From an uncultured Gammaproteobacteria bacterium (GTDB taxonomy: Bacteria; Patescibacteriota; Patescibacteriia; UBA9934), in NCBI GenBank assembly GCA_964613815.1, contig CAZTKG010000006.1, positions 10,973 to 74,972 of the forward strand: a DNA stretch of 64,000 bases, read 5' to 3'. The notes beneath the pieces are model-generated. The model made no database searches. It saw only the letters and a program-made list of their open reading frames with translations, and was not told where the DNA came from. Position 1 is the first letter of the stretch, and each line of letters begins with the position of its first letter. The position numbers and the translations under genes are program-made. This document shows, in pieces, positions 17,877 to 63,176 of the stretch.

Positions 17877-17956
17877 TCCCATCTCGACCTTGTGGAGAGA
17901 TCTGATAGCGACCAGGGCATGAGATCTCTCCACAGGGTCGAGATGGGAAGAGGGGG
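17877..17956. repeat. complete copy of a dispersed inverted-repeat element: 26-bp arms CCCATCTCGACCTTGTGGAGAGATCT / AGATCTCTCCACAGGGTCGAGATGGG around an 18-nt centre, followed by AAGAGGGGGG
   Basis: Seen directly. It is homologous to the copies at 38970, 42524, 48921 and 63089. Confidence 0.7.
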
Positions 17957-17959
17957 GTG

Positions 17960-18643
17960 TTAGATATGCATAATGTCTATTTCTTTGAATGATCGGGACT
18001 TGAAGCTGTAGAGGGCGGCGGGACGGTTGGCTTGACCTGTTTGTTTGCGGCCGGTGGGTTTGATGAGGTCTAGGGAGAGGAGTTTTCGGCGGAAGTTTCG
18101 TTTGTCTAGTTTTTTGCCGAGGATTGTTTCGTAGGTTGCTTGGAGGTCTGTGAGGGTGAATTCTTTTGGAAGAAGGGACCAGACGATGTTGGTGTAGCCG
18201 AGTTTTGCCTTTAATCGCTTATGCGCGAGTTTGATGACAGTTTTGTGGTCGTAGGCGAGGGGAGGGAGTTTTTTGATGGAGACCCAGCGGACGTCTTTGT
18301 ACTTTTCTGAAGTTTTGAGGGGGTAGCGGCCACTTGGGAGAAGGGCGAAGTAGGTGATGGAGATGACGCGGCCCAGGGGGTCTCGTTTGATGTCGTCGAA
18401 GGTTTGGAGTTGTTCTAAGTATGCTGATTTGACGCCTGTCTGTGCATTTAGGATGCGAATTGTGGCGTCTTTTGATGTTTCGGCTTGTTTGATGAGGCCT
18501 CCTGGAACGGCCCATTTGTCTGTGAATGGGGCGCGTTTCATTTGGATGAGGAGGACTTTGAGGTCATTGTTTTGGACGGTAAAAATGACTGCATCGGCAG
18601 CGATTTTGATGTTTTGTCCGTTCCAATGTTTCGGGGTAGCCAT
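17960..18643 (-). CDS. NrtR-like regulator: NUDIX hydrolase domain fused to a C-terminal winged-helix domain
   Basis: Nudix box GGLIKQAETSKDATIRILNAQTG (GX5EX7REUXEEXGU-like), with about 90 aa of C-terminal basic/helical sequence. The start was taken at the ATG (MATPKHWNG) because the track's GTG start lies inside the -10 box. Its own promoter (TTGACA-17-TACTTT) lies at 18668-18697. Confidence 0.65.
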   Translation of the reverse strand: MATPKHWNGQNIKIAADAVIFTVQNNDLKVLLIQMKRAPFTDKWAVPGGLIKQAETSKDATIRILNAQTGVKSAYLEQLQTFDDIKRDPLGRVISITYFALLPSGRYPLKTSEKYKDVRWVSIKKLPPLAYDHKTVIKLAHKRLKAKLGYTNIVWSLLPKEFTLTDLQATYETILGKKLDKRNFRRKLLSLDLIKPTGRKQTGQANRPAALYSFKSRSFKEIDIMHI

Positions 18644-18667
18644 AGGGTGTTTGTGTCGTATGTACAC

Positions 18668-18731
18668 AAAGTATCATGGGTTTTGGGTGTTGTCAACCTC
18701 TGTAAAGATCAGTAGGGCTAATCCGCGTGGC
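18668..18731 (-). promoter_or_regulatory. promoter of the NrtR-like gene, carrying the same upstream module (GCCACGCG...TTTAC..GGTTGACAA)
   Basis: Reverse complement reads GCCACGCGgattagccctactgatcTTTACagagGTTGACAacacccaaaacccatgaTACTTT. Confidence 0.5.
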
Positions 18732-18799
18732 ACGGGAGGGGCTGGTGTTGACAAAGTGTTGGTTTTGTGGTAGTTTTTTGTCGTTCTTTGGAGGTAGAG

Positions 18800-19219
18800 A
18801 TGTCTGGTGATTCTCTTGTGTGCAAGATTGTGATTTCTGGTTCTCGAAAGGGGTTGCAGTATTTCATGTGCCGTGGACATCGTGAGGGAAGTACGACAAC
18901 GCTTGTTACTACGTTTGATTTGACGTTGGCGACGATTGACGTGCTTCTGGATGAGCTTCGTGAAGAGGTGAATGGTCTTTATTGTGATGTAGAGTTCCTA
19001 GAGACTGAGTCGGTGGAGATGTTCCGACGCGAGGCCGCTGCTGATGCGACGAGGAAGGCTGAGGGGGTTGCTCAAGAAGTTGCCAATATTGCACCGGCTG
19101 TATTTCGTCGGATTATGGCTTCTGCTGATTCTTCAACGGCCGTGCGTCTGACCGTCGATGTGACCGTGATGGGCCGTTCGGCGACTCAAACGGTGCAGCT
19201 TTCGGCGCAGAGTATTTAG
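18800..19219 (+). CDS. hypothetical protein
   Basis: ORF with SD ggagg 6 nt before the internal ATG (MSGDSLVCK). It is followed by a strong terminator. Confidence 0.4.
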   Translation: MSGDSLVCKIVISGSRKGLQYFMCRGHREGSTTTLVTTFDLTLATIDVLLDELREEVNGLYCDVEFLETESVEMFRREAAADATRKAEGVAQEVANIAPAVFRRIMASADSSTAVRLTVDVTVMGRSATQTVQLSAQSI

Positions 19220-19235
19220 TCTCTTCTGATAGCAC

Positions 19236-19258
19236 GCGGTTTCGCGTGTTTTTTTCTT
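19236..19258 (+). terminator. rho-independent terminator: cacgcg-gttt-cgcgtg + T7
   Basis: Sequence cacgcggtttcgcgtgttttttt. Confidence 0.6.
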
Positions 19259-19515
19259 TGATACAAAAGTGGTCCGTACGGACCACTTTTGATACAAGGA
19301 GGATGGGGGGGTGTTGTTTGTTTTAGGTAATGAAATATGTGTTTTTTGATTTTTGTATTTGGTTTCTCTCTGTATTTAATATGCTCCGTACGGATTGTTT
19401 TTGTATCAAGGAGGTTGATGGGCGAGTGATGAGGGAGGATTTTTTTGGGATGTGTGATTAGTTGACATTGTGGGATTTTTTTGTTATGTTTTTTTCGTTC
19501 TTTTGAGGAGGGACT

Positions 19516-19995
19516 GTGTACGTTTTTCTTTGTCTTTTGTTTTTGGCTTGTGGATTTGACGGTGGTGATACTGCCTCTGCTGATACGGCGGCGGTGACGG
19601 TCACGATGACGACAGGGAGTGGGTCGACAGGTTCAGTGACGACTTCTTCGACATCTGCTACGACTACTACGCTTGTGACCTCTACGACGTCTGGGACTTC
19701 ATCGACAGGTGGTGTTCCTGAGCGTTATGGTTCTGAGGCGGAGGAGATTCCGCCGGGGACGATGGAATGTTTGTGGGAGTATGTGAAGGCGCAGACGGAG
19801 TACTACTGCGCGGATACGCCGGGGATGTGGGCGTGTCAGGGGTATGCGGATCGTGACGGCGATGGGTATGGGGATGCGAACGACGGGGGGAGTCGGGAGG
19901 ATTACTCGTACATCTGTCCTGGGGAGGAGCTTCGTGAGGGGTACACGCTTGGTCCGGATACGGATCGGGATGACTGGGACGCTTTGGTGCATTGA
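19516..19995 (+). CDS. putative lipoprotein with a Thr/Ser-rich linker and a Cys-containing acidic C-terminal domain
   Basis: MYVFLCLLFLACGFDGG has a signal peptide with lipobox L-A-C. A promoter (TTGACA-17-TATGTT) lies at 19451-19485. Confidence 0.55.
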   Translation: MYVFLCLLFLACGFDGGDTASADTAAVTVTMTTGSGSTGSVTTSSTSATTTTLVTSTTSGTSSTGGVPERYGSEAEEIPPGTMECLWEYVKAQTEYYCADTPGMWACQGYADRDGDGYGDANDGGSREDYSYICPGEELREGYTLGPDTDRDDWDALVH

Positions 19996-20016
19996 TCAGT
20001 GAGATCGTGCGCTTTT

Positions 20017-20427
20017 TTATTTGTTTAGAAATGTTTCAAAAGCTGGATGGAGGTTTGGGATGAGGGATTCGTTTTGATAATTGAGGGGATCGATCCATTT
20101 GAAGGCTGAGTGGTCTTCGGAGAGAGTGACGTTTTGGGTGTTTGATTGGCAGTGGAAGAAGGTTCCGACGATTTGCCACTGTTCACCTCTTACTGTTGGG
20201 CGCCATTCGTTCATGAAGAAGGGGGTTCCGATGGTGACTGTGAGGCTTGTTTCTTCCATGATTTCTCGTTTTAAAGCGTCTAGGAAGTGTTCGCCTGGGT
20301 TTAGGCGGCCTCCTGGGACGTCGAATTGACCTCGGTTTGATGCGTCTTTGTAGGATTGTGATTCTGCGAGGACGAGGATTTTTCCGTTGTGTTCGATAAA
20401 GGCTTTTGTGGCTACGAAGAGGCGCAT
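20017..20427 (-). CDS. NUDIX hydrolase
   Basis: Nudix box GGRLNPGEHFLDALKREIMEETSL. Confidence 0.75.
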   Translation of the reverse strand: MRLFVATKAFIEHNGKILVLAESQSYKDASNRGQFDVPGGRLNPGEHFLDALKREIMEETSLTVTIGTPFFMNEWRPTVRGEQWQIVGTFFHCQSNTQNVTLSEDHSAFKWIDPLNYQNESLIPNLHPAFETFLNK

Positions 20428-20491
20428 AGGGGGATTTTTTGATTGTTGATGTCATTATCTTGACATGATTTACTTTATTGTGTAAGTTTTC

Positions 20492-20890
20492 TTGTTCTTT
20501 TCTGGAGGCGTGATGGGGACGATGATTCGTCTTGGGCGCGCGTCTCAGATTGTGACGTGCGTTGAGTTGACTGGATACTCTTCGGTGACCGTGGGGCTTT
20601 TGATGCGTTCGCGGGTTTCGATCAATGCTGGTTGGGCGTACGACTTTCATTTTTTCTTTCTTCTGAATGGTGAGCGGATTCCGCTTCAGGTGCGAGCTTC
20701 TTGTGACCGGCGTGACCGGCGGAGTTTGCAAGTTGGGTTTCAGCCTATTTGGGAGCAGGTGACGGATCTTGAGCAGGCGGCGCGTGATGGTGTGCTTGAG
20801 CTTCTCATCGTTCATCATTTTCGTGGGGCTTTTCATACTCACCGTGTGTGGGTTGAGGCTCCTGGGGAAGGAGTTCTCTCGGCGTGCTGA
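20492..20890 (+). CDS. hypothetical protein (weak PilZ-like RxxxR / D-x-S-x-x-G resemblance)
   Basis: 132-aa ORF. Only a weak motif resemblance was found. Confidence 0.3.
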   Translation: MFFSGGVMGTMIRLGRASQIVTCVELTGYSSVTVGLLMRSRVSINAGWAYDFHFFFLLNGERIPLQVRASCDRRDRRSLQVGFQPIWEQVTDLEQAARDGVLELLIVHHFRGAFHTHRVWVEAPGEGVLSAC

Positions 20891-20913
20891 TGTGCGTCGG
20901 GTTTTTTGATAGA

Positions 20914-22293
20914 ATGGAGGATATGGGGTTTTTTGATTTTTTGAAGCGTCGGCCGGAGCAGAAAGAAGTAAAGGAGCGAGAGCGGCTTCAGTTTACGAGT
21001 TCTGAGGTCACGGAGGCGAGTTTGGCGCATCCGGATCGGAATGAGGATGCTTCTTTTGTGTCTGCGGAGGATGGATTTATGGTTGTTAGTGATGGAGCCG
21101 GTGGGCATGCTGGAGGGGATGAGGTTAGTCGGCGTATTGTTCAGTCTTTTGCGGAGACGCTTGAGCATGTGCGTGGAGTGGAGCTTGGGGAGGATTCTTT
21201 AGAAAAGGCGAGTGAGCTTTTGGAGATGCAGGTTTTGAAGGCTGCGCAGGATGCGTATACGTTTTCGATGGAGGTGGCGCAGACGCTTGATGATCCTAGG
21301 AAGCGGCCGATGGCGACGGTGATGGCTGGGCGGGTGATTCGGACGGAGCAGGGGATTCGTGCGATTATCAAAAGCGTTGGGGATGGACTTGCGTATGTGC
21401 GGCGAGCGAATGGGGAGGTGGAGCAGGTGCCGATTGTCGAGGATAGTTATGTGGCAATGTATTTTGAGAAGAAGGTGCGGAAGGGGGAGCTTTCTGAGGA
21501 GGATGTGTATCGGATTATGAATTGTTCTAGTCCTTTGGATTTTGATTTTGAGCCGGATTTGGTGAAGGGGGCGCTATTGAAAAAAGAAGCGCAGTTTTAT
21601 TTTAAGAAACGGAATGTTGTCACTGCTTCGCTTGGGAGTGATTTGCCTGATTCGCTGGATGTTCATTCGGCGATTGTGGCGCTGGATACGGGGGATGAGC
21701 TTTTCTTTATGAGTGATGGGGTGGAGAATTTGACGGATGATGAGCGGAAGATGCTTTTGAGTGGTGGGCCGCATTTGCAGTCTCGGGCGGAGGCTTTGAT
21801 GAGTAGTTCTGTTGCGCGGAGTCAGAGTCGGTCGAGGCGGTCGAAGAAGGATGATGTGACGGTGACGGGGCTTGAGGTGCGGGATGTGGTGCATGAGGAG
21901 ATGGAGAAGGCAGCTGCGGTGAATGCGAAGATTGAGCGGTTGCGTGATAGGCAGGAGGTGTTTGCTGGACGTGTGCGGGAGCTTGGAAAGCTTGTGAGAC
22001 GGAAGGGGGCTCGGCCTTTGGAGCGGATGGATTTGTATCAGACGCAGATGCAGCTTGCGGATGTGCAGTATGCGATTGGGAAGGCGCAGTTGGAGCTTTA
22101 TGATGAGGGGACGGATGATAAGCGGGATCAGTTTGAGATTCAGCGGCATAAGGAGACGATGCGGCTTGCGAAAGCGAATCGGACTCGGGCGGAGAATGCG
22201 CTCGGTCGGCTTCAGGGTGCTAGAGATGATGTTGACCGGGTGAAGGCTGATAAGGCTCGGGCGGCTGCGCGGAATGCGAGTAAGGGGGCTTGA
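20914..22293 (+). CDS. PP2C/SpoIIE-family phosphatase with a long C-terminal coiled coil
   Basis: HPDRNEDASFV, MVVSDGAGGHAGG, VGDGLAYV and FFMSDGV are PPM motifs. The C-terminal 130 aa is heptad-rich (ERLRDRQEVFAGRVRELGKLV...). The start is uncertain (M11/M14 of the track ORF). Confidence 0.7.
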   Translation: MEDMGFFDFLKRRPEQKEVKERERLQFTSSEVTEASLAHPDRNEDASFVSAEDGFMVVSDGAGGHAGGDEVSRRIVQSFAETLEHVRGVELGEDSLEKASELLEMQVLKAAQDAYTFSMEVAQTLDDPRKRPMATVMAGRVIRTEQGIRAIIKSVGDGLAYVRRANGEVEQVPIVEDSYVAMYFEKKVRKGELSEEDVYRIMNCSSPLDFDFEPDLVKGALLKKEAQFYFKKRNVVTASLGSDLPDSLDVHSAIVALDTGDELFFMSDGVENLTDDERKMLLSGGPHLQSRAEALMSSSVARSQSRSRRSKKDDVTVTGLEVRDVVHEEMEKAAAVNAKIERLRDRQEVFAGRVRELGKLVRRKGARPLERMDLYQTQMQLADVQYAIGKAQLELYDEGTDDKRDQFEIQRHKETMRLAKANRTRAENALGRLQGARDDVDRVKADKARAAARNASKGA

Positions 22294-24232: not shown

Positions 24233-26032
24233 TTATAGTCCTGCTATTCTTTGAATTTCTTCGATTGAAATGTGTCCTTCGTACGCCTTTAGGAGGCCGT
24301 CTTGAGTCATGGTGAGCATGCCTTGTTTTTGGGCAACTTCTTTCATGGCATATTCGGATACCTCGCCGGAGAGGATGAATTTTTCGATGTCGGCGTCTTT
24401 GATAAGGATTTCGTAGATTCCCATTCGGCCTTTGTATCCGGTGTTGTTGCACTTAGGGCAGCCTTTTGCTTTTTTGAATTGTGTTTTTGTGAGGTCTGGT
24501 GGGGTTTCGCCGGATGCTTCTGGGATTGTAGTGAGGAGTTCGGTGATTTTTTTCATGACTTCGGCGTCTGGGGTGTCGGGTTCGCTACATTCTGCGCACA
24601 ATCTGCGCGCGAGGCGCTGTCCCATGATGACGTTGACGGCTGGAGCGAGGAGGAATGGTTTGACGCCCATGGCGTTGAATCGTGGGATGGCTCCGGAGGC
24701 GTCGTTTGTGTGGATGGTGGAGAGGAGGAGGTGACCGGTGAGGGCTGCTTGGATGGCTGTTTCCGCTGTTTCTAGGTCTCGGATCTCACCGACCATGACG
24801 ACGTCTGGGTCTTGGCGGAGAATGGAGCGGAGACCTTTGGCGAAGGTGTATTCTTTGGAGTGGTTTATTTGGCTTTGGTTGAGGCCTTCTACTTTGTATT
24901 CGATTGGGTCTTCTAGAGTGATGATTTTGGTTCCAGCGACGTTTAGTCTGGAAAGGATAGCGTATAGCGTTGTGGTTTTTCCGGATCCTGTTGGTCCGGT
25001 GGTGATGATCATGCCGTGTGGCTTTGAGAATTCTTTTTCTAGACGTTTGAAGGATGCTTCGCGGAATCCAAGGTCGGAGAAGTCTAAGGAGATAGAGTCT
25101 GGATTGAGGATACGCATGACAACAGATTCTCCCCAGGCGGTTGGGAGAGTGGAGGTACGGACGTCGATTTTTTTGCCTTCTGCGTTGATGGTGAATCGAC
25201 CGTCTTGTGGTTTGTCGAGGATGTTCATTTTGAGGCCGGCGACGAGCTTGATGCGGTTGATCATTTTTTTCCACTCGTCTTTGTTGATGGTTGTGATCTC
25301 TTGAAGCATGCCATCGACACGGAATCGCACAGTGATGCCTTTTTCTTCGGCTTCGATGTGGATGTCGGAGGTCTTTACTTTGAGCGCGGCGGCGATGACG
25401 ATGGCGATGATGTCTGTGGTGCTAGCGTCTTTGAGGACGCTGGCAATGTCTGCGAAGCTGTTGATTTTGTCTTGGAATTGTTTAAGTTCCTCTTCTGAGA
25501 TTTCTACGCCTTTTTTGATTTTTTGGATGCGCGGGAGTGTGGAGTAGAGTTTTTTTCCATGTTCTAAACTGTCCTCGGTGATTTGGTAGATTGATCCGTG
25601 TGCCTTGTTACGTTCTGTGAGTTGAAAGAGAAGGTCTTTGATTTCTTGTTTTTGTGGTTCTACAGCGCCAATTCGGATTTCTGGTCCAGTAAAAAGAAAA
25701 CAAATGACTTGTTGTTTTTTGGCGACCATGAATGGAATTTGCGAAAGGGCGTCTGCGGAGATTGGGTACCCTTTGAGGTCGATATATTCGAAGCCGGATG
25801 TTTTTGCTTTGACTTCTGTTTCTTTTTCTTTGCTTGATCGAGTGATGTTTTGCAATTTTGTATCAAGTTCCTCGGTGACGGATGCTTTTGGCGGCGTAGA
25901 TGCTTTTGGTTTGCTTGGTTGTTTGGGAGGGGCTGGCTGTGCGGGTGCTGATGTTGCCTGCTTTTTTTTGAGGAGGTCTTCGATGGATGGGAGTGCGTCT
26001 GACATAGGTTGGGTTACTTGCGTGTGAGCCAT
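24233..26032 (-). CDS. pilB: type IV pilus / type II secretion assembly ATPase
   Basis: Walker A GPTGSGKTT, an Asp box and His box, CxxC...CxxC tetracysteine (CAEC...CPKC), and a GspE N-terminal domain. Confidence 0.85.
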   Translation of the reverse strand: MAHTQVTQPMSDALPSIEDLLKKKQATSAPAQPAPPKQPSKPKASTPPKASVTEELDTKLQNITRSSKEKETEVKAKTSGFEYIDLKGYPISADALSQIPFMVAKKQQVICFLFTGPEIRIGAVEPQKQEIKDLLFQLTERNKAHGSIYQITEDSLEHGKKLYSTLPRIQKIKKGVEISEEELKQFQDKINSFADIASVLKDASTTDIIAIVIAAALKVKTSDIHIEAEEKGITVRFRVDGMLQEITTINKDEWKKMINRIKLVAGLKMNILDKPQDGRFTINAEGKKIDVRTSTLPTAWGESVVMRILNPDSISLDFSDLGFREASFKRLEKEFSKPHGMIITTGPTGSGKTTTLYAILSRLNVAGTKIITLEDPIEYKVEGLNQSQINHSKEYTFAKGLRSILRQDPDVVMVGEIRDLETAETAIQAALTGHLLLSTIHTNDASGAIPRFNAMGVKPFLLAPAVNVIMGQRLARRLCAECSEPDTPDAEVMKKITELLTTIPEASGETPPDLTKTQFKKAKGCPKCNNTGYKGRMGIYEILIKDADIEKFILSGEVSEYAMKEVAQKQGMLTMTQDGLLKAYEGHISIEEIQRIAGL

Positions 26033-32647: not shown

Positions 32648-33199
32648 ATGAAGATTACTCGACCGTCACAGCGTAAGCATCGAGGATTGTTTTTTGGCGC
32701 GCTTGCTGTTGGGGTGGTTGTGTTGTTTGGGATTTGGGGGTTTCAGATTTTGGTCATGGTGGAAGGTAATGCGGAGCGTATGGCTGGGCGTGAGAAGTTG
32801 AGTGAAACGATTGAAGCTGGGCAGGATTATGCGGAGGAGCTTCGGGAGTTGACGCCTCAGCTCGATGGAGATGTGCAGAATTTTGTTTCTGGGATTTCGA
32901 ATTTGTTTTTTGCGGCTGAGGTGAGTGAGGCTGAGGCGGAAGCTGTTGCTGGAGGGGTTGTGGAGGCGCTTTTGGCTGATTTGGACGAGGAGGACGTAAA
33001 GAGCGATGACGCTCCACGTCCCGAGGGGGAAGTTGAAGGCGTTGATTCCGGAGATGAGGAGGGGGGAGATGGGAGTATTGATGGCGGAGGTGATGATCGG
33101 AGTTTGATTTATGCTGAGACTGATGTGGCTGAAGGGGATTTCTCCAGCAAGGTCGAGATGACAGAAGGAGGGGGTGAAGGTGAGGATGTTCGTTTTTAA
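32648..33199 (+). CDS. membrane-anchored acidic hypothetical protein
   Basis: N-terminal TM helix followed by an extremely acidic and Gly-rich sequence. Confidence 0.45.
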   Translation: MKITRPSQRKHRGLFFGALAVGVVVLFGIWGFQILVMVEGNAERMAGREKLSETIEAGQDYAEELRELTPQLDGDVQNFVSGISNLFFAAEVSEAEAEAVAGGVVEALLADLDEEDVKSDDAPRPEGEVEGVDSGDEEGGDGSIDGGGDDRSLIYAETDVAEGDFSSKVEMTEGGGEGEDVRF

Positions 33200-35898: not shown

Positions 35899-37929
35899 CT
35901 AGAGGGCGTCACCGGTGAGGGCGCATTCCTTCTTTTTCTTTGGGCAGGTGAGAAGGTACATGTGGCCTGACCGGAGGACAACCGTTGCACGGATTTGGAC
36001 CCTGTCTTTGAGGACGCGGATGGCTGTGTAGCCGCCGGGGGGTACCGAGATGTCTTCGCCGGGTGACAAGGCGAATTTGTTTCGGTCGATGTCGAGTAGG
36101 TAGTCGATTCCTCCGTTCGGATCGGTGCCGATTCTGGCGAAGGTTCTGATTTCCTTGACTTCCGTTGCCGTTGTTGTGGGAGTCGCTTCCTGGGTGGGTT
36201 GCGAGACCGTTTGAACTGGGGTTTCGGGAGTTGGCGCCGGAGGCTCTTCCATGAAGAACGTTCGATAGCCGAGGATGACCACGACGATCACTAGAAGAGC
36301 GAGAATGGTGCCTTCGATCCAGCCTGCTCGCGAGCGAGGCTGCTCGATTGGCTCGACGCTGAAGGCGGTTGGGATTTTCGCTGAGCCTGGAGCTGCGAAG
36401 GTCCCCCCTGGGACGCGTCTCGTTTGTGGCCGCTCCACTGGATCTGGTTCGTTTGCGAATTCGATGGGAGTTCTCGGGCCAGCCGGAGGTTCAGCTTGGA
36501 TAGGCGGCGGTGTTGGCGCTGAGATCTCGGGAAGTTCGAATTCGGCAAACGTCTGGTTTGTGTCTTGATCCGTTTGCTGCGCCGGTTCGGGCTCTTGGAG
36601 TTCTTCGATGATGGCCATTGCGCCTGTTCCAGCGTGCTGCCGAATGATGGGTGTTGAGCTACGAACCGGAGCAATCGGCTCGCTGATTGATTCCATCGGT
36701 GTCACGATTGCAGCTGGGGCTGGCACGATCGTTGGGGAGGACGCGGGGATTTGAACCGGTCGCGGTCCTCTTGGGACGTGCGCTGTGGCGGGTGCTGGCG
36801 GTGAGGTTTGCGGCTTGATGTGTGTACGCGCCTTTGGCTGAGGCGTTGCCGCGACTTGAGGTGCTTCTGATGGTGTGGGCGCGCGTGGCGTTGCCCTGGG
36901 CATGCTGATCATCAGATGTCTGGGCGGCGATGCTGGACTGTGGAAGTCGCTCGGGAATTCGGTTCTGGTTCCGCCTGAGGATCCTTTTTCGAGTCTTTCT
37001 GTTGAGGGCTTTGGCGTTGTTGGTCGCGCGCGGTTGATGCTGATGACGCCCTTGCTGGTTCTCGCCTCGATTTCCTGAAGCATAGCTTCTGCGGCTGGGA
37101 ATCGTTTGCCAGGATTCCACTGTGTTGCTCTGACGATGATGCCACGCAATGGCTCGGTGATCGGCTGGAGCTCGGAGGCTGGGAACATCTGGCTTCCTCT
37201 CAGGCGTTTTGGTGGGAGTTTTCCGAGCGCGAGGGCGAGCATGGTCACGCCAAGGGCATAGATGTCCGCCGTTTCGCTGATTCGGGTTGGGTCCCTTGCT
37301 TGTTCTGGCGCCATGTATTCCGGGGATCCCATGCGGGATCCTGCGCGCGTGTGCGCGACACCCATGTTGCCTTGGGCGATTCCGAAGTCTGCGAGGACGT
37401 ACTGGCCATGGTCTCCGATGAGGATGTTGTCTGGCTTGACGTCTCTGTGCATGTACCCTTGCGAGTGAGCGAATGAGAGTGCTCGTAAGATGTCGCGTGT
37501 GATTGCGAGAATCTTCCACTGGGAAAGTGGTGATGCACGTCCCTCTTGCCCCTTTCGGATGTACTGTTCGCACGATCCGTGCTTGAAGTACTGGAGTACG
37601 AGATAGTAGATGTGGAACATCTTTCTCTGTGTGCTCTGGTTTGGCAGGATGGTGCGCTGGACGTCGTAGAGCGTGAGGATGTTCGGGTGGCCTCGAAGTG
37701 CGGCGAGAATTGTTGCCTCTTGTGTGAATCGGGCAACTGATTCGTTGTTGCGGCACATTTTTGGGTCGAGGAACTTCAGGGCGAGGGTGATGTTGATGTG
37801 ATCGGCCACGCTTCCGAAGACGCGATCTTCTGCGAGGAAGACCGTCGACATTCCGCCTTCGCCGATTTTTTGCCTGATGCGATATCGATGATCGGCAGGG
37901 AACTGGAATCCATCGAGAAGATTGGACAT
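35899..37929 (-). CDS. Hanks-type Ser/Thr protein kinase with a Pro-rich linker, TM segment and extracytoplasmic C-terminal domain
   Basis: GEGGMSTVFLA, VALKFL, HRDVKPDNILI, DFGIA and SPEYMAPE. The start was taken at the ATG preceded by aaGGAGAaac (M26 of the track ORF). Confidence 0.8.
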   Translation of the reverse strand: MSNLLDGFQFPADHRYRIRQKIGEGGMSTVFLAEDRVFGSVADHINITLALKFLDPKMCRNNESVARFTQEATILAALRGHPNILTLYDVQRTILPNQSTQRKMFHIYYLVLQYFKHGSCEQYIRKGQEGRASPLSQWKILAITRDILRALSFAHSQGYMHRDVKPDNILIGDHGQYVLADFGIAQGNMGVAHTRAGSRMGSPEYMAPEQARDPTRISETADIYALGVTMLALALGKLPPKRLRGSQMFPASELQPITEPLRGIIVRATQWNPGKRFPAAEAMLQEIEARTSKGVISINRARPTTPKPSTERLEKGSSGGTRTEFPSDFHSPASPPRHLMISMPRATPRAPTPSEAPQVAATPQPKARTHIKPQTSPPAPATAHVPRGPRPVQIPASSPTIVPAPAAIVTPMESISEPIAPVRSSTPIIRQHAGTGAMAIIEELQEPEPAQQTDQDTNQTFAEFELPEISAPTPPPIQAEPPAGPRTPIEFANEPDPVERPQTRRVPGGTFAAPGSAKIPTAFSVEPIEQPRSRAGWIEGTILALLVIVVVILGYRTFFMEEPPAPTPETPVQTVSQPTQEATPTTTATEVKEIRTFARIGTDPNGGIDYLLDIDRNKFALSPGEDISVPPGGYTAIRVLKDRVQIRATVVLRSGHMYLLTCPKKKKECALTGDAL

Positions 37930-38132
37930 GGTTTCTCCTTGAAAAACTGGTGAAATTGATAATGAACGAGAGGAATTCTTATCAGAAAAAATGGGTTTTG
38001 TCAAGGAAAAATGATATTTTTTTGTTTGTTTGCTTGGGTTTTTGGTTTATTTTGGCGATTTGGTTGTTTTTGATTCGTGTGTTTGACAATTTGGGCGATA
38101 TTTATTACAGTTCTGGCCGTAATCTATCTTTT

Positions 38133-38402
38133 ATGTCTGTTCCGAAGTTTCGGAATTCTCGTTCTCGTGTTCGACGTCGTCGCGCGCATCATCATTTGAA
38201 ACCTGTATCGCTCCGAAATTGCGGAAAATGTTCCGAGCCTGTTTTGCCTCATGTGGCATGCAAGGCTTGTGGATTTTATAAAGGACGAGAAGTGGTGAAA
38301 AAAGATGTTGTTCCGGTGAGGGTTGAGGCGAAAACTGAAGAATCAAAACCAACTGAGGTTGTAGCCCCTCAAGAAAAAGCTGCAGAAAAGACTCCGGCGT
38401 AA
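38133..38402 (+). CDS. rpmF: 50S ribosomal protein L32 with a C-terminal extension
   Basis: MSVPKFRNSRSRVRRRRAHHHL...CGKCSEPVLPHVACKACGFYKGR, the L32 signature with a zinc ribbon. The track ORF starts earlier at a hydrophobic N-terminus that is unlikely to be real. Confidence 0.7.
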   Translation: MSVPKFRNSRSRVRRRRAHHHLKPVSLRNCGKCSEPVLPHVACKACGFYKGREVVKKDVVPVRVEAKTEESKPTEVVAPQEKAAEKTPA

Positions 38403-38457: not shown

Positions 38458-39036
38458 ATGTCGAATCGTCATTTAGCCCGAACCATGGCTATGCAGTGTC
38501 TTTTTGAATGGGATTTTCGTCGTGGTGATAAAGAGCGGGTGCCGGAGATTGTGCAGTTTGTGAAGGAGGAGTTTGCTCCTCAGTTTGATGATGGGGATTA
38601 TGTGGCTCATCAGGTCGCGGAAACGATTGGGCGGATTAATGAAATTGATGAGATTTTGGAACATTTTGCGCCGGATTGGAATATTCCTGAGATGACGATT
38701 GTTGATCGGAATATTTTGCGGCTTGGGGCGTATGAGTTGAAATTTGATGAGAAGATTCCTAGTAAGGTGGCGATTAATGAGGCGATTGAATTGGGGAAGA
38801 CATTTGGAGGAAGTGCTAGTGGGAAGTTTATTAATGGTGTGCTTGGAGCGGTTTATAAAGATATGGTTGCCAAGGGTGAGTTGAAGAAGGTTGATTTGGA
38901 GAAGCGAGAAGAAAAAGAGAAGAAGGAAGAAGTGGCTGATGCCGGGGAAGGGAAGGAAGGTGAAGAGATCTCTCCACAAGGTCGAGATGGGAAGGGGGAT
39001 GAGAAAGAGGAGAAGAAAGAATCTAGTGACGAATAA
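38458..39036 (+). CDS. nusB: transcription antitermination factor NusB with an acidic/Lys C-terminal extension that contains a repeat-element half copy
   Basis: [21 protein letters not shown]...[14 protein letters not shown] is the NusB core. The tail ...[12 protein letters not shown]... is encoded by the AGATCTCTCCACAAGGTCGAGATGGG repeat. Confidence 0.8.
38970..39002. repeat. half copy of the inverted-repeat element (AGATCTCTCCACAAGGTCGAGATGGGAAGGGGG) inside the nusB 3' coding region
   Basis: Identical to the reverse complement of the left arm at 17877-17902. Confidence 0.7.
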
Positions 39037-40981: not shown

Positions 40982-42478
40982 TTGGTTAGTATGAAATTTT
41001 TGAATGGGAAATTTTTTGTTGATGGGCGGTTTTTGGCCGCTGATGTTTTGGTTGAGGATGGGGTGATTGTGCATGCGGGAGATCCTTCCGTCGAGGGTGA
41101 ACATCCCTCGACTCAGGATGGCTGCAGGGCGGAGGAAGTTGTTGATTTGGGTGGGCGATTTGTCTTGCCTGGGTTTGAGGATGCGCATAATCATCCTTCT
41201 CGGCGGAGTCGGACGTTAAGTGAAATTGATTTGCGGCGGGGGGATTTGGATTGGGAAGGGGTTGTTTCTCGTTTGCGTGATGCGTGTGAGGAGGGCTTAT
41301 CAGCCTGGATTGTTGTGCATGGATGGAATGATTCGAAATGGGGGGTGGAGGTGACGCAGGCGCTTGTTGATGAGGTTTGTGGGGATCGGGCGGTGTTCTT
41401 TTTTCATCATACGTATCACATGGGGCTTGTGAGTTCTGCGGGGATTGCGAAATTGCGATCTGAGGGATGGAAAGGGGAGGATGAGGAGGGCGCTGTTCAT
41501 GAGAAAAATTTTGTGGAGGTTGAGGTGCGTACGGCGCCAGGGGTTATGGAGACGGCGGAGAATATTAAGCGGTATTGTGATGGGTGGATGGAGAAGGGGA
41601 TTGTTGCGGTGCATGATATGTATGTGACGAGTTTTGATCAGCTGGAGGCGTATGTGCGACTTTTGGATGATGAGGAGTTTGTGATGAATGTTTCGCTTTT
41701 TGTGGATGCGCGGTTGTTTGAGGAGAGGGGTCGGTTTCGGGCGTATGTTGATCGGTTGAAGGGGCAGATTCAGATTCGTGGGGTGAAGGTGTTTATGGAT
41801 GGGACGATTGGGACGAAGACGGCTTGTTTTAAAGAGGCTTATTGTTGTGGGATGATTGGGTCGACGTTTGTGTGTGAAGAGGAGTTTCGACGTATTGTGG
41901 ATTTGATGGCGTCTTTTGGGTTGAGGGATGTGGCAGTGCATGCGATTGGAGATGGAGGGATTGAGAAGGTTTTGGATATTGTGGAGGCGATTGGAGATGA
42001 GCGTTTGCGATGGCGACTTGAGCATTGTGAGATGCTTGTGCCGGAGGCTTTGGTTAGGATGAAAAAGCTTGGTGTTGTCGCGAGTGTGCAGCCGAATTTT
42101 TTGTGGGATGCGGTGCATTATGGTGATCGGCTTGGGGATCGGGTGAAGGAGCTTGTGCCGCTTCGAAGTATTCTTGATCATGATGTTTTGATGCCGTTTG
42201 GGAGTGATGATATGCCGAGTGGGCCGATGGATGGGATTGGATGGGCAGTTGATGAGGGGCAGTTTCCGCGTCGGGCGGTGACGTTTGCGGAGGCGGTGGA
42301 TGCGTATACGCGGGTGAGTGCGGAGGTGGTTGAGGCGGGGGATCGGCGGGGGAGGATTGCGGAGGGGTGTGAGGCGAGTTTTGTGGTTTATGATGAAGAT
42401 GTTTCGGGGATGATGTCGGCGGAGATGATGAAGGTTTTGCCTCGGGAGGTTTGGGTGAGGGGGAGGAGAGTGAAATAA
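40982..42478 (+). CDS. amidohydrolase-family metal-dependent hydrolase
   Basis: N-terminal FEDAHNHPS (HxH metal motif), VHAIGDGG, and the C-terminal Asp region typical of the amidohydrolase 3 family. Confidence 0.7.
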   Translation: MVSMKFLNGKFFVDGRFLAADVLVEDGVIVHAGDPSVEGEHPSTQDGCRAEEVVDLGGRFVLPGFEDAHNHPSRRSRTLSEIDLRRGDLDWEGVVSRLRDACEEGLSAWIVVHGWNDSKWGVEVTQALVDEVCGDRAVFFFHHTYHMGLVSSAGIAKLRSEGWKGEDEEGAVHEKNFVEVEVRTAPGVMETAENIKRYCDGWMEKGIVAVHDMYVTSFDQLEAYVRLLDDEEFVMNVSLFVDARLFEERGRFRAYVDRLKGQIQIRGVKVFMDGTIGTKTACFKEAYCCGMIGSTFVCEEEFRRIVDLMASFGLRDVAVHAIGDGGIEKVLDIVEAIGDERLRWRLEHCEMLVPEALVRMKKLGVVASVQPNFLWDAVHYGDRLGDRVKELVPLRSILDHDVLMPFGSDDMPSGPMDGIGWAVDEGQFPRRAVTFAEAVDAYTRVSAEVVEAGDRRGRIAEGCEASFVVYDEDVSGMMSAEMMKVLPREVWVRGRRVK

Positions 42479-42523
42479 AAAAACGACCGTGATGAGGTTC
42501 GGTTGTTTTTTGATGAGATCTCT

Positions 42524-42560
42524 CTACTCACTTCGTTCGGTCGAGATGGGCAGAGGGGTT
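42524..42560. repeat. long-form half copy of the inverted-repeat element (AGATCTCTCtactcacttcgttcGGTCGAGATGGGCAGAGGGG)
   Basis: Matches the reverse complement of the left arm of the 63089 copy (agatctctccattcacttcgctcagtcgagatggg). Confidence 0.65.
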
Positions 42561-42757
42561 TATGATATTAGTTGTACGACGTAGTGGCCGGCTATGAGGG
42601 ATAGGCCGATGAGCATGGTGATGAAGGTGATTTTGAGGACGGCTGCGGCGTCGTCGTCGTCTTTGACGAAGGACATAAAGATAAAGCTCGCGAATCCGAT
42701 GATTAGCGCGACGGGAATAACCGTAAGTACAATGCCTGTGATGAGCATGTATGACAT
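42560..42757 (-). CDS. small membrane protein (hypothetical)
   Basis: 65 aa with two TM helices separated by DDDD. Confidence 0.4.
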   Translation of the reverse strand: MSYMLITGIVLTVIPVALIIGFASFIFMSFVKDDDDAAAVLKITFITMLIGLSLIAGHYVVQLIS

Positions 42758-48868: not shown

Positions 48869-48919
48869 AATGAGGGTGGATAAAAAAATCGGCCATTGGC
48901 CGATTTTTTTGATTTTTGA

Positions 48920-49276
48920 CTAGATCTCTCCGCCTTGGTCGAGATGGGAGGAGGCGGTGGAAGTTGGTTCTGGTTCAGATGGTGATGTTGCGGCTAAGCT
49001 GCTTTTTACTTCGTCTTTTAGTTTTTTTCCAGCTTTGAATTTTGGCACTTTTACCGCTGGGATGTCGATGATTTGAGATGGGTTTCTTGGGTTCACGCCT
49101 TTTCTTGCGTGGCGTACGCGGGAGGAGAACGTGCCGAATCCGCTGATGGTTACTTCTTCATCGTTTTGGAGGGCTTTGATGATTTCTGCTTGGAAGGCGA
49201 TGAGGAAATCTTCTGCCTCTTTTTTGGAGAGGTTGAGATTGTCTGCAATTTTTTCTGCCAGTCTTGCTTTGTTCAT
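48920..49276 (-). CDS. hup: DNA-binding protein HU with a Ser/Pro/Thr C-terminal tail
   Basis: MNKARLAEKIADNLNLSKKEAEDFL...GFGTF...R.ARKGVNPRNP is the HU/IHF fold signature. Confidence 0.8.
   Translation of the reverse strand: MNKARLAEKIADNLNLSKKEAEDFLIAFQAEIIKALQNDEEVTISGFGTFSSRVRHARKGVNPRNPSQIIDIPAVKVPKFKAGKKLKDEVKSSLAATSPSEPEPTSTASSHLDQGGEI
48921..48950. repeat. half copy of the inverted-repeat element (AGATCTCTCCGCCTTGGTCGAGATGGGAGGAGG) overlapping the hup stop codon
   Basis: The last 9 codons and the stop of hup (SHLDQGGEI*) are encoded by the element. Confidence 0.65.
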
Positions 49277-59924: not shown

Positions 59925-60074
59925 GCCGAAGTTGCACTCTGGGTATGGTGCGACGTCGGGTCGGGACACCTTTAGCGTCCATACCGTTAATTTTGGCTAC
60001 AGGATGGATGGGTGAGGAGCGGCGGTGTCATATCCTCCGCCTCCTTACGCACCATACCCAGAGTGCAACTTCGG
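59925..60074. repeat. 30-bp perfect inverted repeat (gggccgaagttgcactctgggtatggtgcg / cgcaccatacccagagtgcaacttcggccc) enclosing a 90-nt GC-rich loop, 25 nt upstream of leuS
   Basis: Seen directly. Both arms are exact reverse complements. Confidence 0.75.
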
Positions 60075-60098
60075 CCCGTTTTGATTATTTATATTTGT

Positions 60099-63095
60099 AT
60101 GCAATTTGATCATAAGAAGATTGATAAGAAATGGCAGGAGCGGTATGAGGCTGAGGAGCCTTTTAAGGCTTTGGATGATTCTGATAAGGAGAAGGTTTAT
60201 CATCTTGTTGAGTTTCCTTATCCGAGTGGAGCGGGGCTTCATGTTGGGCATGTTCGGAGTTATACAGCGCTTGATATTGTGAGTCGGAAAGCTCGGATGT
60301 TGGGAAAGGAAGTTTTGTATCCGATTGGATGGGATGCGTTTGGGTTGCCGACGGAGAATTATGCGATTAAGACGGGGCGGTTGCCTGCGGAGGTGACGAA
60401 GGAAAATATTGATACGTTTCGGCGTCAGCTCAAGGCGCTTGGGATTGGGTTTGACTGGAGTCGGGAAGTGGATACGACGGATCCGAATTATTATAAGTGG
60501 ACGCAGTGGATGTTTTTGCAGTTTTTTGATGCGGGGCTTGCGTATAAGGCGACAGTGCCGATTAATTGGTGTTTGAGTTGTAAGATTGGGCTTGCGAATG
60601 AGGAGGTGGTTGCTGGGGCTTGTGAGCGTTGTGGGGGTGAAGTTGAGAAGCGAGATAAAGAGCAGTGGATGATTCGGATTACGGATTATGCGGAGCGGCT
60701 TTTGGAAGGGTTGGATGAGGTGGATTATTTGCCGCAGATTGCGAAGCAGCAGTGGGATTGGATTGGGAAGAGTGAGGGATGTGATATTGATTTTGTGGTT
60801 TCTGGTGAGGGAGTGGAAGAGATTGTTGTGGCGACGGGGAATGAGGCGAAGGTTGCGCGGGTGAAGAAATTGCTTGGGCGTGTTTGTGCTGGAGTGAAGG
60901 TTTTCTCGATTAGCGATGCTGGACTTGAAAAGGTTGAGGTTGAGGAGGATGGGTCGCTTGTGGAGAATGCGCGGAAGAAGGCAGTGGCTTATATTGGAAA
61001 AACTGATAAGCCTGTGCTTGGGATGGATACGGCGTTTTATATTGATGGGGAGGAGATTGATCCTTTGGCGGTGAAGCGGAATGCTTTGGGAGGTGCGGAT
61101 GAGAAGGATTTTTCGCAGGAGGAGATTGCGGAGAAGATGCATGCGTTTTATCGGAAGATTGCGGAAAAGCATGGTGGGGATGTTGAGGCGTATTTTGAGG
61201 ATGCGAGTGTGTTGATTTTTGCTGATGGGAGTGAGCGGGTTGAGGTGAATCAGCGGGCGGTTATTTTGACATCGGAAGCGGTTGGGGAGCGGGAGTTGTA
61301 TTTTCCTGTGCGGAATATGTATAAGGTTGCGGCGACGGGGAAGTATGTTGCTGATTCTGATGAGGAGGATGAGTTTGTTGAGCTTGTAAGTTTGATGGGT
61401 GCCTTGCGGAATGTTTGTGCGCCGAGTTTGTGTGTGTTTACGACGCGGCCGGATACGCTTTTTGGGGCGACGTATATGGTTTTGGCGCCGGAGCATCCTA
61501 TGGTTGACGCGTTGACGATTGATGATCAGAAAAAGGTAGTTGATGATTATGTGAAGGCGGCTGGGAGGATTTCTGATCGGGATCGGGGGGATGCTGGTCG
61601 GGAGAAGACGGGGGTGTTTACGGGGGCGTATGTGATTAATCCTGTGAATGATGAAAAGATTCCTGTTTGGGTGGCTGATTATGTCTTGATGGGATATGGG
61701 ACTGGAGCGATTATGGCGGTGCCGGGGCATGATGAGCGGGATTGGGCGTTTGCGAAGAAATTTGAAATTGATATTCGGGAGGTGGTTTCTGGAGGTGATG
61801 TTGATGAGGAGGCGTATGTTGGTGATGGGGAGATTGTGAATAGTGATTTTTTGGATGGGAAGCCTGTAGCGGAAGCGAAGGAATTGATGATGGAGCGACT
61901 TGTGGAGATGGGGGTTGGGCGTGCGAAGGTGAATTATAAACTTCGGGATTGGGTGTTTAGTCGGCAGCGGTATTGGGGGGAGCCTATTCCTTTGGTGCAT
62001 TGTGAGGATTGTGGATGGGTGCCGGTTTCTGATGGGGAGTTGCCTGTTGTGCTTCCTGTGGTTGAGAAATATGAGCCTACGGATAGTGGGGAGAGTCCGC
62101 TTGCGGCGATTGAGGAGTGGGTGCAGACATCGTGTCCTGCGTGTGGAGAGGGGGCTCGGCGGGAGACGGATACGATGCCGAATTGGGCTGGGTCTAGTTG
62201 GTATTTTTTGCGGTATGTTGATGCGCGGAATGATGAGGAGTTTGCATCAAAGGAAAAGCTTGCTGCATGGATGCCGGTGAATTTGTATAACGGGGGGATG
62301 GAGCATACGACGCTTCATTTGTTGTATTCTCGGTTTTGGAATATGTTCTTGTTTGACCGAGGATTGGTTCCGACGAGCGAACCTTATGCGAGGCGACATA
62401 GTCATGGGATGGTGCTTGCGCATGATGGATTGAAGATGAGTAAGTCGAAGGGGAACACGGTGAATCCGGATGAGATTTTGGAAGGACTTGGAGCGGATGC
62501 GCTTCGGATGTACGAGATGTTTATGGGGCCGTTTGAAGATGCGATTCCTTGGAACGAGCAGGGGCTTGTGGGGGTTCGGCGATTTTTGGATAAGGTTTGG
62601 CGGTTGCAGGAGAAGGTATCGGATAGCGAAGATGAGAGTGTGACTCGCGCGGTTCATAAGATGGTGAAGAAGGTTGGAGAGGATGTTGATGGGATGCGGT
62701 TTAATACGGCGGTGAGTGCGTTTATGATTTGTGTGAATGTGATTCAGGAGGCGGGGAGTGTGACGAAGGATTCGCTTGTGATGATGTTGACGGCTTTGAA
62801 TCCGTTTGCGCCGCATGTGACGAATGAGATGTATGAGATTTTGGGAGGAGAGGGACTTTTGGAGAAGTCTGCGTGGCCTGTTTATGATGAAGGGTTGGTG
62901 GTTGATGATGAGGTGACGGTTGCGGTGCAGGTGAATGGGAAGTTGCGTGGGAAGATTGTGGTGCGTGTGGATGCTGCGGAGGTTGATGTGGTTGAGACGG
63001 CGAAGGGGGAGGAGAATGTGGTGAAGTTTTTGGAGGGGGTTGATATTAAGAAGACGGTTTATGTGAAGGGGAGGTTGGTGAATTTTGTGGTTTGA
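60099..63095 (+). CDS. leuS: leucyl-tRNA synthetase carrying an about 210-aa Ham1/ITPase-like insertion
   Basis: HVGHVRSY (HIGH), KMSKS, Zn-knuckle cysteines and the CP1 editing core (FTTRPDTLFGAT...GTGAIMAVPGHDERD). Between the Zn module and CP1 lies EIVVATGNEAKVARVKKLL...VENARKKAVAYIGKTDKPVLGMD..., matching the RdgB/Ham1 signature VLATGNxGKxxE...ENAxxKA...PxLgDDSG. Confidence 0.9.
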   Translation: MQFDHKKIDKKWQERYEAEEPFKALDDSDKEKVYHLVEFPYPSGAGLHVGHVRSYTALDIVSRKARMLGKEVLYPIGWDAFGLPTENYAIKTGRLPAEVTKENIDTFRRQLKALGIGFDWSREVDTTDPNYYKWTQWMFLQFFDAGLAYKATVPINWCLSCKIGLANEEVVAGACERCGGEVEKRDKEQWMIRITDYAERLLEGLDEVDYLPQIAKQQWDWIGKSEGCDIDFVVSGEGVEEIVVATGNEAKVARVKKLLGRVCAGVKVFSISDAGLEKVEVEEDGSLVENARKKAVAYIGKTDKPVLGMDTAFYIDGEEIDPLAVKRNALGGADEKDFSQEEIAEKMHAFYRKIAEKHGGDVEAYFEDASVLIFADGSERVEVNQRAVILTSEAVGERELYFPVRNMYKVAATGKYVADSDEEDEFVELVSLMGALRNVCAPSLCVFTTRPDTLFGATYMVLAPEHPMVDALTIDDQKKVVDDYVKAAGRISDRDRGDAGREKTGVFTGAYVINPVNDEKIPVWVADYVLMGYGTGAIMAVPGHDERDWAFAKKFEIDIREVVSGGDVDEEAYVGDGEIVNSDFLDGKPVAEAKELMMERLVEMGVGRAKVNYKLRDWVFSRQRYWGEPIPLVHCEDCGWVPVSDGELPVVLPVVEKYEPTDSGESPLAAIEEWVQTSCPACGEGARRETDTMPNWAGSSWYFLRYVDARNDEEFASKEKLAAWMPVNLYNGGMEHTTLHLLYSRFWNMFLFDRGLVPTSEPYARRHSHGMVLAHDGLKMSKSKGNTVNPDEILEGLGADALRMYEMFMGPFEDAIPWNEQGLVGVRRFLDKVWRLQEKVSDSEDESVTRAVHKMVKKVGEDVDGMRFNTAVSAFMICVNVIQEAGSVTKDSLVMMLTALNPFAPHVTNEMYEILGGEGLLEKSAWPVYDEGLVVDDEVTVAVQVNGKLRGKIVVRVDAAEVDVVETAKGEENVVKFLEGVDIKKTVYVKGRLVNFVV

Positions 63096-63176
63096 CCCAT
63101 CTCGACTGAGCGAAGTGAATGGAGAGATCTGATAGTGGCAGAGCTGCAAGATTTCTCCGCGATGGTCGAGATGGGA
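63089..63176. repeat. complete long-form copy of the inverted-repeat element directly after the leuS stop
   Basis: Arms cccatctcgactgagcgaagtgaatggagagatct / agatttctccgcgatggtcgagatggg with centre gatagtggcagagctgca, then agatgttgggggg. Confidence 0.7.

Follow-up and report, generated by a model that had tools for sequence, protein, structure and literature searches.

What are the short inverted repeats that recur at the ends of genes in a Patescibacteria genome, and to which kind of element do they belong? The question is raised by a 64,000-nucleotide stretch of DNA (hereafter the window; assembly GCA_964613815.1, contig CAZTKG010000006.1, positions 10,973 to 74,972 of the forward strand), in which an original prediction, made from the letters alone, had noticed five loci carrying a common arm. 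It had called them a REP-like (repetitive extragenic palindrome) or MITE-like (miniature inverted-repeat transposable element) repeat that is remodelling gene ends. This description was right in kind: the repeat is dispersed and structured, occurs in paired and single forms, and has an architecture that can be refined to that of the CGTC-tagged REPs and of the Ssn-related motifs (SRM), the hairpin repeats bound by Ssn nucleases. Taken as a whole, the data are probably best explained if the arms are CCC-tagged hairpins of this SRM/CGTC-REP superfamily, cut by a cognate Ssn, and if the inverted pairs are gene-less miniatures. The Patescibacteria host, the near-identical core in three phyla and the lodging of copies at or inside gene ends go beyond the published descriptions.

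The arm is a repeated unit in the window

The window contains 4 exact matches to the composite motif AGATCTCTCC-N(4-20)-GGTCGAGATGGG, against 0.00 expected from 100 dinucleotide-preserving shuffles, and three additional arms deviate from it by one mismatch each (42516-42550; 63096-63130, - strand; 63149-63175). Seven intact arms are therefore present at the five loci that had been described, with the motif on the + strand in five cases and on the - strand in two (Table 1). Loci 1 and 5 are inverted pairs of arms with a spacer of 18 nt each, and loci 2-4 are single arms, as proposed. The two palindromic elements had also been said to have related centres; the inverted pairs and the 18-nt spacers were confirmed, but the relatedness is a weak claim, since only 9 of the 18 spacer positions are identical, chiefly the first five (GATAG). 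The short and long arm classes were likewise recovered, with cores of 26-27 nt in four window arms and of 35 nt in two, and the 26-nt core of locus 2 is identical to that of the left arm of locus 1. The arms at loci 2 and 3 start at 38966 and 42516, a few nucleotides away from the starts first given. A looser motif search identified a degenerate copy at 33133-33165 that had not been noticed before. The window thus holds seven arms and one degenerate copy of an imperfect palindromic, hairpin-forming repeat per 64 kb.

The tag-bearing strand is the folding strand

On the strand opposite to that of the original prediction, the arm reads (T)CCC-ATCTC-GA-CC-[apex]-GG-A-GAGAT-CT, a tagged imperfect hairpin. 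It is composed of an unpaired (T)CCC tag, a 5-bp stem (ATCTC/GAGAT) beginning with A-T, a conserved internal loop (GA/A), a 2-bp step (CC/GG), a replaceable apex and a short tail (CT-N). The apex takes one of two forms, a loop of 4-5 nt or a 2-bp mini-hairpin with a purine-N-A triloop (e.g. GCGAAGT); triloops of this type close very stable DNA mini-hairpins such as GCGAAGC. The 5' tag is invariant and oriented, with (T)CCC in 7/7 intact arms, and TGTC is found only in the degenerate copy at 33133-33165.

The pairing is supported by compensatory changes. The basal stem is ATCTC/GAGAT in 92 distinct copies and ATTTC/GAAAT in 11, and the rarer compensatory forms ACTTC/GAAGT, ATCCC/GGGAT and ACCTC/GAGGT are each present in a few copies. 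Among 45 distinct 35-nt copies, the first apical pair is AU (15), CG (12), GC (10), GU (3) or UA (1) and the second is CG (21), UA (15) or UG (9); the A4:T33 pair is present in 45/45 and T5:A32 in 44/45. Paired cells amount to 92.6%; shuffles give 84.6 ± 0.9%, and at most 60% is reached when the register is shifted by 1-3 columns. The apical triloops are of the RNA type (purine-N-A), GAA being found 15 times, GTA 9 times and AAA 7 times. On the CCC-tag strand, among copies that are not independent of each other, G.T pairs outnumber A.C mismatches by 22 to 3, which identifies it as the folding strand. Nearest-neighbour DNA folding returned exactly the proposed structure for the short arms: the left arm of locus 1 folds as single-stranded DNA (ssDNA) into 5 bp, an internal loop and 2 bp, and the whole locus 1 element (92 nt) reaches -34 kcal/mol (z = -8.6). 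These data demonstrate that the repeat family is real, structured and strand-polarised.

This architecture is close to that of the CGTC-tagged REPs, a superfamily including dRS3 and the Rickettsia repeats RPE-4 and RPE-6, whose units carry a terminal CGTC tag, at times TGTC or CCTC, begin their stem with A-T and end with a 3-nt tail (Di Nocera et al., BMC Genomics 2013, PMC3733652). The arms have the A-T stem start and the short unpaired tail (CT-N), but their intact tags read TCCC, GCCC or ACCC and not CGTC, TGTC or CCTC.

Copies of the arm in other genomes

The arm is not unique to the window: when one genome per species was scanned for the exact composite motif (22-nt core), at least 77 stretches matched. 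Among the matches listed, the 22-nt core occurs mostly in Anaerococcus (at least 8 species) and also in two Uhrbacteria, two Doudnabacteria and Pedobacter alluvionis, and both the short and the long arm class recur in other phyla. Relaxed matches cluster at arm lengths of ~26-28, 35-38 and 43-46 nt. The Anaerococcus arms are intergenic in 242 of the 252 cases among the listed matches; they are frequent between convergent and tandem genes and depleted between divergent genes. Within the same set, close pairs are tag-outward in 33 cases versus 7 in the opposite arrangement, head-to-head dimers being predominant. This polarity is shared by 2/2 window pairs and by the Pedobacter pair, which begins 5 nt past a stop codon. 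Pair spacers vary from 4 to ~60 nt. No replication-strand bias of the arms was seen in Anaerococcus, and a fixed orientation relative to the upstream gene was rejected, as the window and Anaerococcus disagree.

Eight high-GC matches (Proteobacteria, Acidobacteria and similar) were set aside because they lie in the coding sequence of an unrelated conserved protein, as PISTGLGEIYQ on the reverse strand, which we take to be an RND-pump motif. No arm was matched in plasmid and phage collections. IMG/VR yielded two matches, both on low-GC (30-31%) contigs, one of them with the same flanks as in Anaerococcus hydrogenalis (L030), and the arm was taken as host DNA. Nothing matching was found in the literature on Anaerococcus repeats and on REPIN/RAYT in Firmicutes, and the arm sequence string retrieved unrelated primers only.

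Two features of the Anaerococcus copies may be mentioned here. In many contigs (L065, L066, L071 and many others) a second conserved block, AATTGCT(A/G)AAG, lies ~18 nt past the arm, and arms of both orientations form long non-coding arrays with units of ~300-400 bp. In addition, three loci from three Anaerococcus species appear orthologous because the upstream flank is common to all; they carry a short arm with ACAG (L065:6918), a short arm with ACAA (L049:2345) and a long arm (L018, - strand, 4835-4869), which suggests that the apex was exchanged or replaced in place.

In low-GC Firmicutes-type contigs the same motif flanks genes for a stand-alone GIY-YIG nuclease

Ssn proteins are single-domain GIY-YIG nucleases of ~94 aa (CDD family cd10448) that bind hairpin repeats, called NTS in Neisseria (CGTCATTCCCGCGMAVGCGGGAATCYRG) and SRM in general (Chenal et al., Nat Commun 2025, PMC11893778). 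Cleavage falls a few nucleotides upstream of the bound repeat and is confined to ssDNA and to one strand; double-stranded DNA and RNA are never cut. An SRM lies nearby in 71% of ssn homologues, and on both sides in 42%; the NTS-ssnA-NTS layout resembles an insertion sequence, and in N. meningitidis the Ssn system lowers transformation by NTS-bearing DNA (PMC11893778).

Among the arm-rich loci, seven open reading frames (ORFs) are flanked by arms on both sides, and 2/7 encode the same 96-aa protein, located inside an arm array in A. rubeinfantis (L038) and in A. senegalensis (L060). This protein is a stand-alone GIY-YIG domain (PF01541, E = 3e-17). Its hits in PDB and NCBIfam are generic GIY-YIG/UPF0213 relatives only. 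Its database relatives are ~95 aa long and are often encoded on very short contigs; they include proteins of Patescibacteria and Saccharibacteria that share 56-57% identity with it. The hairpins beside these genes are informative. At 70% identity to the Anaerococcus protein (L096), the gene stands between CCATTTCGACC...GGAGAAATCC arms (the ATTTC variant) in the order tag-arm, gene, complement-arm, and in another gene neighbourhood. At 65% (L115), GTC-ATCCT-GAGC-GCA-GCGA-AGGAT-CTC is followed after 16 nt by a similar hairpin in reverse complement, and both stand upstream of the gene. At 63% (L102), the repeat GTCATACCGACCGAGCGTAGTGAGTGGAGTGTATCTC combines a GTC tag with the apex of the window long arms, CGACCGAGCG(T/A)AGTGAGTGGAG. 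At 57% (L083), the hairpin TGTCATTCCCGCGAAGGCGGGAATCCAG equals the NTS consensus except for the first base; the L083 protein is therefore an Ssn by the published criterion (PMC11893778). At 56% (L086), the layout is GTCATTCCTGCGCAGGCAGGAATCCAGTAC ... gene ... GTACTGGATTCCTGCCTGCGCAGGAATGAC, with the hairpin GTCATTCCTGCGCAGGCAGGAATCCAG and its inverse on the other side of the gene. Across these five loci, the hairpins grade from canonical CGTC-tagged ones into the CCC-tagged arms of the window. The Anaerococcus and L096 loci demonstrate that the same motif flanks predicted Ssn-type genes in low-GC Firmicutes-type contigs. By analogy, the window organism may have, or may have had, a cognate Ssn that nicks the tag strand beside stop codons.

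Small genes resembling 23S_rRNA_IVP or bAvd lie less than 2 kb from ssn in L083 (4720-5103) and L086 (1203-1571), in two unrelated contexts, Patescibacteria and Saccharibacteria; this may be a coincidence.

A nuclease-hairpin model and the points against it

The following sequence of events is proposed. When the DNA becomes single-stranded, during replication, uptake or repair, the tag strand would fold; a cognate Ssn, an ssDNA-specific GIY-YIG nuclease of ~95 aa, would bind the folded strand and nick it a few nucleotides 5' of the tag, here within a pyrimidine-rich stretch beside stop codons. Tag-outward pairs share the polarity of hairpin-ssn-hairpin units and could be gene-less miniatures of them, analogous to REPINs or MITEs, and single arms would be remnants of pairs. 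In a compact genome, the only places where copies would persist are the 3' ends of genes and disordered C-terminal tails, which would account for the translation of some of them.

Several observations weigh against this explanation. (i) No ssn homologue was detected in the 64-kb window, nor in the 8-kb stretches around the arms of Uhrbacteria, Doudnabacteria and Pedobacter, by an Ssn hidden Markov model (E <= 1) or tblastn; the link between CCC arms and a nuclease is therefore provided by the low-GC Firmicutes-type contigs only. (ii) The L038 and L060 loci are probably orthologous, so that the independent associations of gene and arm number about two. (iii) The Anaerococcus GIY-YIG protein is assigned to Ssn (cd10448) indirectly, and would belong there by virtue of its 57% identity to a protein flanked by NTS-consensus hairpins. 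(iv) The published SRM pattern, HGTCWYN(0-2)YYVSBRHN(0-5)WNVSBRGN(0-2)RNCYNB, matches no arm, because it requires GTC. (v) Single arms reach about -3 kcal/mol as DNA hairpins, no better than shuffles; support for the hairpin is comparative, not energetic. (vi) No evidence of arm movement was obtained.

Regarding the pattern, the near-canonical hairpins next to ssn in L086 and L092 escape it as well; it is therefore an operational filter, neither exhaustive nor a definition. Since the CCC tag escapes it, surveys based on this pattern undercount the family. Its sole match in the window is CGTCATGGTCGGTGAGATCCGAGACCTAG at 24772-24800 (- strand). A metagenome scan for further copies from the window lineage returned 3 stretches, with no ssn.

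Arms lodge at and inside the 3' ends of genes

All six loci of the window (6/6) lie between -70 and +45 nt of a stop codon, a zone that represents ~12% of the window; the crude gene set used for this statistic missed nusB, and locus 2 was placed from separate nusB coordinates. The identities of the NusB, HU, NrtR-like Nudix regulator and LeuS genes were confirmed. As had been noted, a complete copy abuts the leuS stop (TGA, 63093-63095): the left arm of locus 5 begins at the very next base. The other complete copy had been placed between a promoter and the NrtR-like gene. However, this gene is on the - strand with its TAA stop at 17960-17962, and locus 1, the tail of which lies 0-3 nt past the gene, is therefore at its 3' end and not on its promoter side. 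The tail of locus 3 ends 1 nt from the stop (42560-42562) of a 65-aa membrane-like ORF (42560-42757, - strand), which is also called as a gene in L079.

Table 1. Arms, spacers and related copies in the window, with the strand on which the tag reads.
Feature	Position	Tag strand	Description
Locus 1, left arm	17868..17906	+	ctcttt-CCC-ATCTC-GA-CC-TTGT-GG-A-GAGAT-CT-gat; short class
Locus 1, spacer	17904..17921		18 nt, GATAGCGACCAGGGCATG, between inverted arms
Locus 1, right arm	17919..17959	-	with pyrimidine-rich 5' tail (cacCCCCCTCTT-CCC...); ends 0-3 nt from the NrtR-like stop
Degenerate copy	33133..33165	-	T-GTC-ATCTC-GACC-TTGCT-GG-A-GAAAT-CC; canonical TGTC tag
Locus 2, single short arm	38963..39002	-	within the disordered nusB C-terminal tail; translated, 11 residues
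Candidate relative (low confidence)	41080..41121	-	AGATCCTTCC-GTCGAGGG-TGAACAT-CCCTCGAC-TCAGGATGG; variable N-terminal loop of the amidohydrolase gene
Locus 3, single long arm	42513..42559	-	35-nt core; 38 nt past the amidohydrolase stop codon
Locus 4, single short arm	48919..48960	-	encodes the end of hup
Locus 5, left long arm	63096..63133	+	first base after the leuS TGA
Locus 5, spacer	63131..63148		18 nt, GATAGTGGCAGAGCTGCA
Locus 5, right short arm	63146..63190	-	stem with T.G wobble (AGATTTCTCC...GAGAT)

The translation of half copies in hup and nusB, already predicted, was confirmed, and a third case was added. The locus 4 arm encodes the last 11 codons and the TAG stop of hup (48920-49276, - strand), the frame of which ends ...SSHLDQGGEI*. 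In nusB (38458-39036, + strand) the arm is situated 45 nt before the stop, and in the ORF 32648-33199 the degenerate copy lies within the 3' end, 38 nt before the stop, and is read as GDFSSKVEMT. These copies are read in three different frames or strands; the conserved unit is therefore DNA, and a conserved peptide is ruled out. The NusB Pfam domain spans residues 7-134 of 192 and the HU domain residues 1-91 of 118. All HU and NusB relatives compared in Uhrbacteria-like Patescibacteria have variable low-complexity C-terminal tails, and none of them carries the arm-derived residues. It follows that the sites in which the arms landed were permissive beforehand. By the same NusB and HU relatives, the window organism is placed near Uhrbacteria within the Patescibacteria. 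As the window is ~90% coding (crude ORF cover), it offers few sites other than gene ends. That the element is remodelling gene ends as an active process is not supported; the data agree with insertions being passively tolerated wherever a ~90% coding genome has one of its few permissive sites.

A stronger version of the nuclease-hairpin model holds that the CCC hairpins of Patescibacteria are active, nuclease-driven elements that insert preferentially at stop codons and rewrite C-termini, and maybe also marks by which Ssn restricts incoming ssDNA in a lineage dependent on natural DNA uptake. We consider this rather unlikely. If it were true, recent transfer of a single Ssn-hairpin pair between phyla would account for the near-identical core shared by Patescibacteria, Peptoniphilaceae and Pedobacter.

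The position of the arms also invites a different explanation, namely that they are a structured RNA element at mRNA 3' ends, which would stabilise the transcript, aid termination or be a site of processing. In addition to the concentration around stop codons, the tag strand coincides with the sense strand of the adjoining gene at 4/5 firm loci (leuS, NrtR-like, hup and the 65-aa ORF), and the covariation and the excess of G.U-type wobbles are equally compatible with RNA. However, the nusB arm and that of the ORF 32648-33199 have the other orientation, the orientation of arms relative to neighbouring genes is mixed overall, and in Anaerococcus the first arm past the stop is in the opposite orientation in 43 cases versus 21. 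The arms lack a U-tract, and separate canonical terminator hairpins adjoin loci 3 and 4 (at locus 4, a bidirectional terminator-like hairpin at 48881-48911). No Rfam match was found at the window arms (gathering threshold) or at the arm-rich loci (E <= 1-10), and an identity of 22/22 nt across phyla would be unusual for a hairpin of a 3' untranslated region. An RNA element is therefore unlikely, and the arms may secondarily affect mRNA, as E. coli REPs are reported to do.

Mobilisation by a transposase fares less well. Classical REPs or REPINs mobilised by RAYT, a Y1 HUH transposase of the IS200/IS605 type, resemble the arms in their imperfect hairpins, short-spacer inverted doublets, single remnants and extragenic location at 3' ends (PMC3116915, PMC3333891). 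Yet the GTAG tag is absent; the arms carry CCC or, as in the CGTC superfamily, GTC. When that superfamily was described, no transposase was known for it, and no association with Y1 transposases was found (PMC3733652). Moreover, the GIY-YIG gene is the only nuclease-like one of the 7 arm-flanked ORFs, the others looking like housekeeping genes on reading their sequences; by the same reading none of the seven resembles a Y1 transposase, no dedicated Y1 profile search having been made. We hold this origin to be very unlikely. That the paired elements are ordinary MITEs, i.e., deletion derivatives of an insertion sequence with a DDE transposase and with the arms as terminal inverted repeats, is more doubtful still: two loci are indeed inverted-repeat units of 80-100 bp and many copies exist in several genomes, but neither complete element has the target-site duplication that had been suggested as a check (the flanking bases extend the inverted symmetry instead), each arm is itself a hairpin with internal covariation and an apex varying in ~9-nt steps, the arms of one pair often differ in length class (locus 5; L024, L011), single arms are common, spacers are far from constant and no transposase gene was seen between arms.

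Implications of the Ssn-related reading

If the arms are SRM/CGTC-REP hairpins cut by an Ssn, the Ssn-hairpin partnership would reach into Patescibacteria and Peptoniphilaceae-type Firmicutes. As a candidate new ssDNA-cutting pair of enzyme and site, the Ssn of Anaerococcus or of L096 is suggested together with CCCATCTCGACC...GGAGAGATCT. In a very compact genome, repeats would gather at stop codons and in disordered tails, where they would add or replace the last codons of housekeeping proteins such as HU and NusB; for annotation, such C-terminal extensions in Patescibacteria would be repeat-derived rather than functional.

Other features of the window

The low-confidence candidate relative at 41080-41121 has a doubly compensated stem, ATCCT/AGGAT, which is also found beside ssn in L115, and a perfect 8-bp apex. 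It was rejected as an inserted arm: in a homologue alignment the amidohydrolase loop exceeds that of relatives by only 3-7 aa, and an insertion is therefore not demonstrated. Among the strain-variant contigs L078-L080, no presence/absence polymorphism was found at any arm, and the arms are identical. L080, from the same organism in another sample, is devoid of 40 nt at 33037-33076 and of 31 nt at 36789-36819, the latter gap splitting a Ser/Thr kinase gene into two calls; neither gap touches an arm, and they are either real polymorphisms or assembly artefacts.

The LeuS ORF (60012-63095) encodes 1027 aa and contains, at residues 271-358, a match to the Ham1p-like ITPase family (PF01725, E = 1.5e-7); this segment is located between the catalytic core and the editing domain and looks like an inserted domain. 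The gene upstream of nusB (L078/L079:9505-9945; about 37962-38402 in the window) encodes a 146-aa protein with a ribosomal L32p domain, presumably more than twice the usual L32 length. Finally, every 4-kb bin of the window (1-64000) has a GC skew of +0.28 to +0.52 and an AT skew of -0.08 to -0.32, with genes on both strands. This uniform strand asymmetry is far beyond ordinary replication skew; the Uhrbacteria-like arm-bearing contigs L008, L113 and L114 are also skewed, with a magnitude of ~0.2.

Comparison with known systems

The closest resemblance is to SRM and NTS repeats. Like these, the arms are oriented hairpins of 25-45 nt with an unpaired 5' tag, an A-T stem start, a variable loop and a short 3' tail; their copies number tens to hundreds, lie mainly between genes and often form clusters; and tag-outward copies flank a gene for a GIY-YIG protein of ~95 aa, with the exact motif in Anaerococcus and L096. 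The wobbles single out one strand, in line with the one-strand cleavage by Ssn (PMC11893778). In contrast to SRM, the arms carry a CCC and not a GTC tag, escape the published degenerate pattern, and have an interrupted stem (5 bp, GA/A internal loop, 2 bp) with a modular apex and three length classes. Their hosts (Patescibacteria, Peptoniphilaceae-type Firmicutes and Pedobacter) lie outside those discussed in the main text of PMC11893778, and 3/8 of the window copies lie in coding sequences, versus ~2% for NTS in N. meningitidis.

With CGTC-tagged REPs, in which head-to-head dimers predominate and some units are intragenic (PMC3733652), the arms share the unpaired end tag, A-T at the first two stem positions, the 3-nt tail, the head-to-head dimers and the intragenic units, and one window copy (33133-33165) even has the TGTC tag. 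However, CGTC-REP families have continuous stems of 8-9 bp and loops of 4-5 nt, whereas the arms have an interrupted stem and an extensible apex, and the phyla listed for CGTC-REPs include neither Patescibacteria nor Firmicutes (PMC3733652). The Rickettsia RPEs provide a parallel for the translated copies, as small palindromic repeats that are tolerated and translated in genes, where they add surface or disordered peptide segments; they are ~100-150 bp long and mostly internal to genes, whereas the translated arms are single, 26-35 nt long and confined to the last 10-25 codons. REPIN-RAYT systems and the BIMEs of E. coli resemble the arms in their inverted hairpin doublets, single remnants and preference for intergenic 3' ends, and in being associated with a small nuclease or transposase gene, present as a single copy with the same repeats on its flanks; they differ in the tag, which is GTAG, and in the enzyme, a Y1 HUH transposase in place of a GIY-YIG nuclease.

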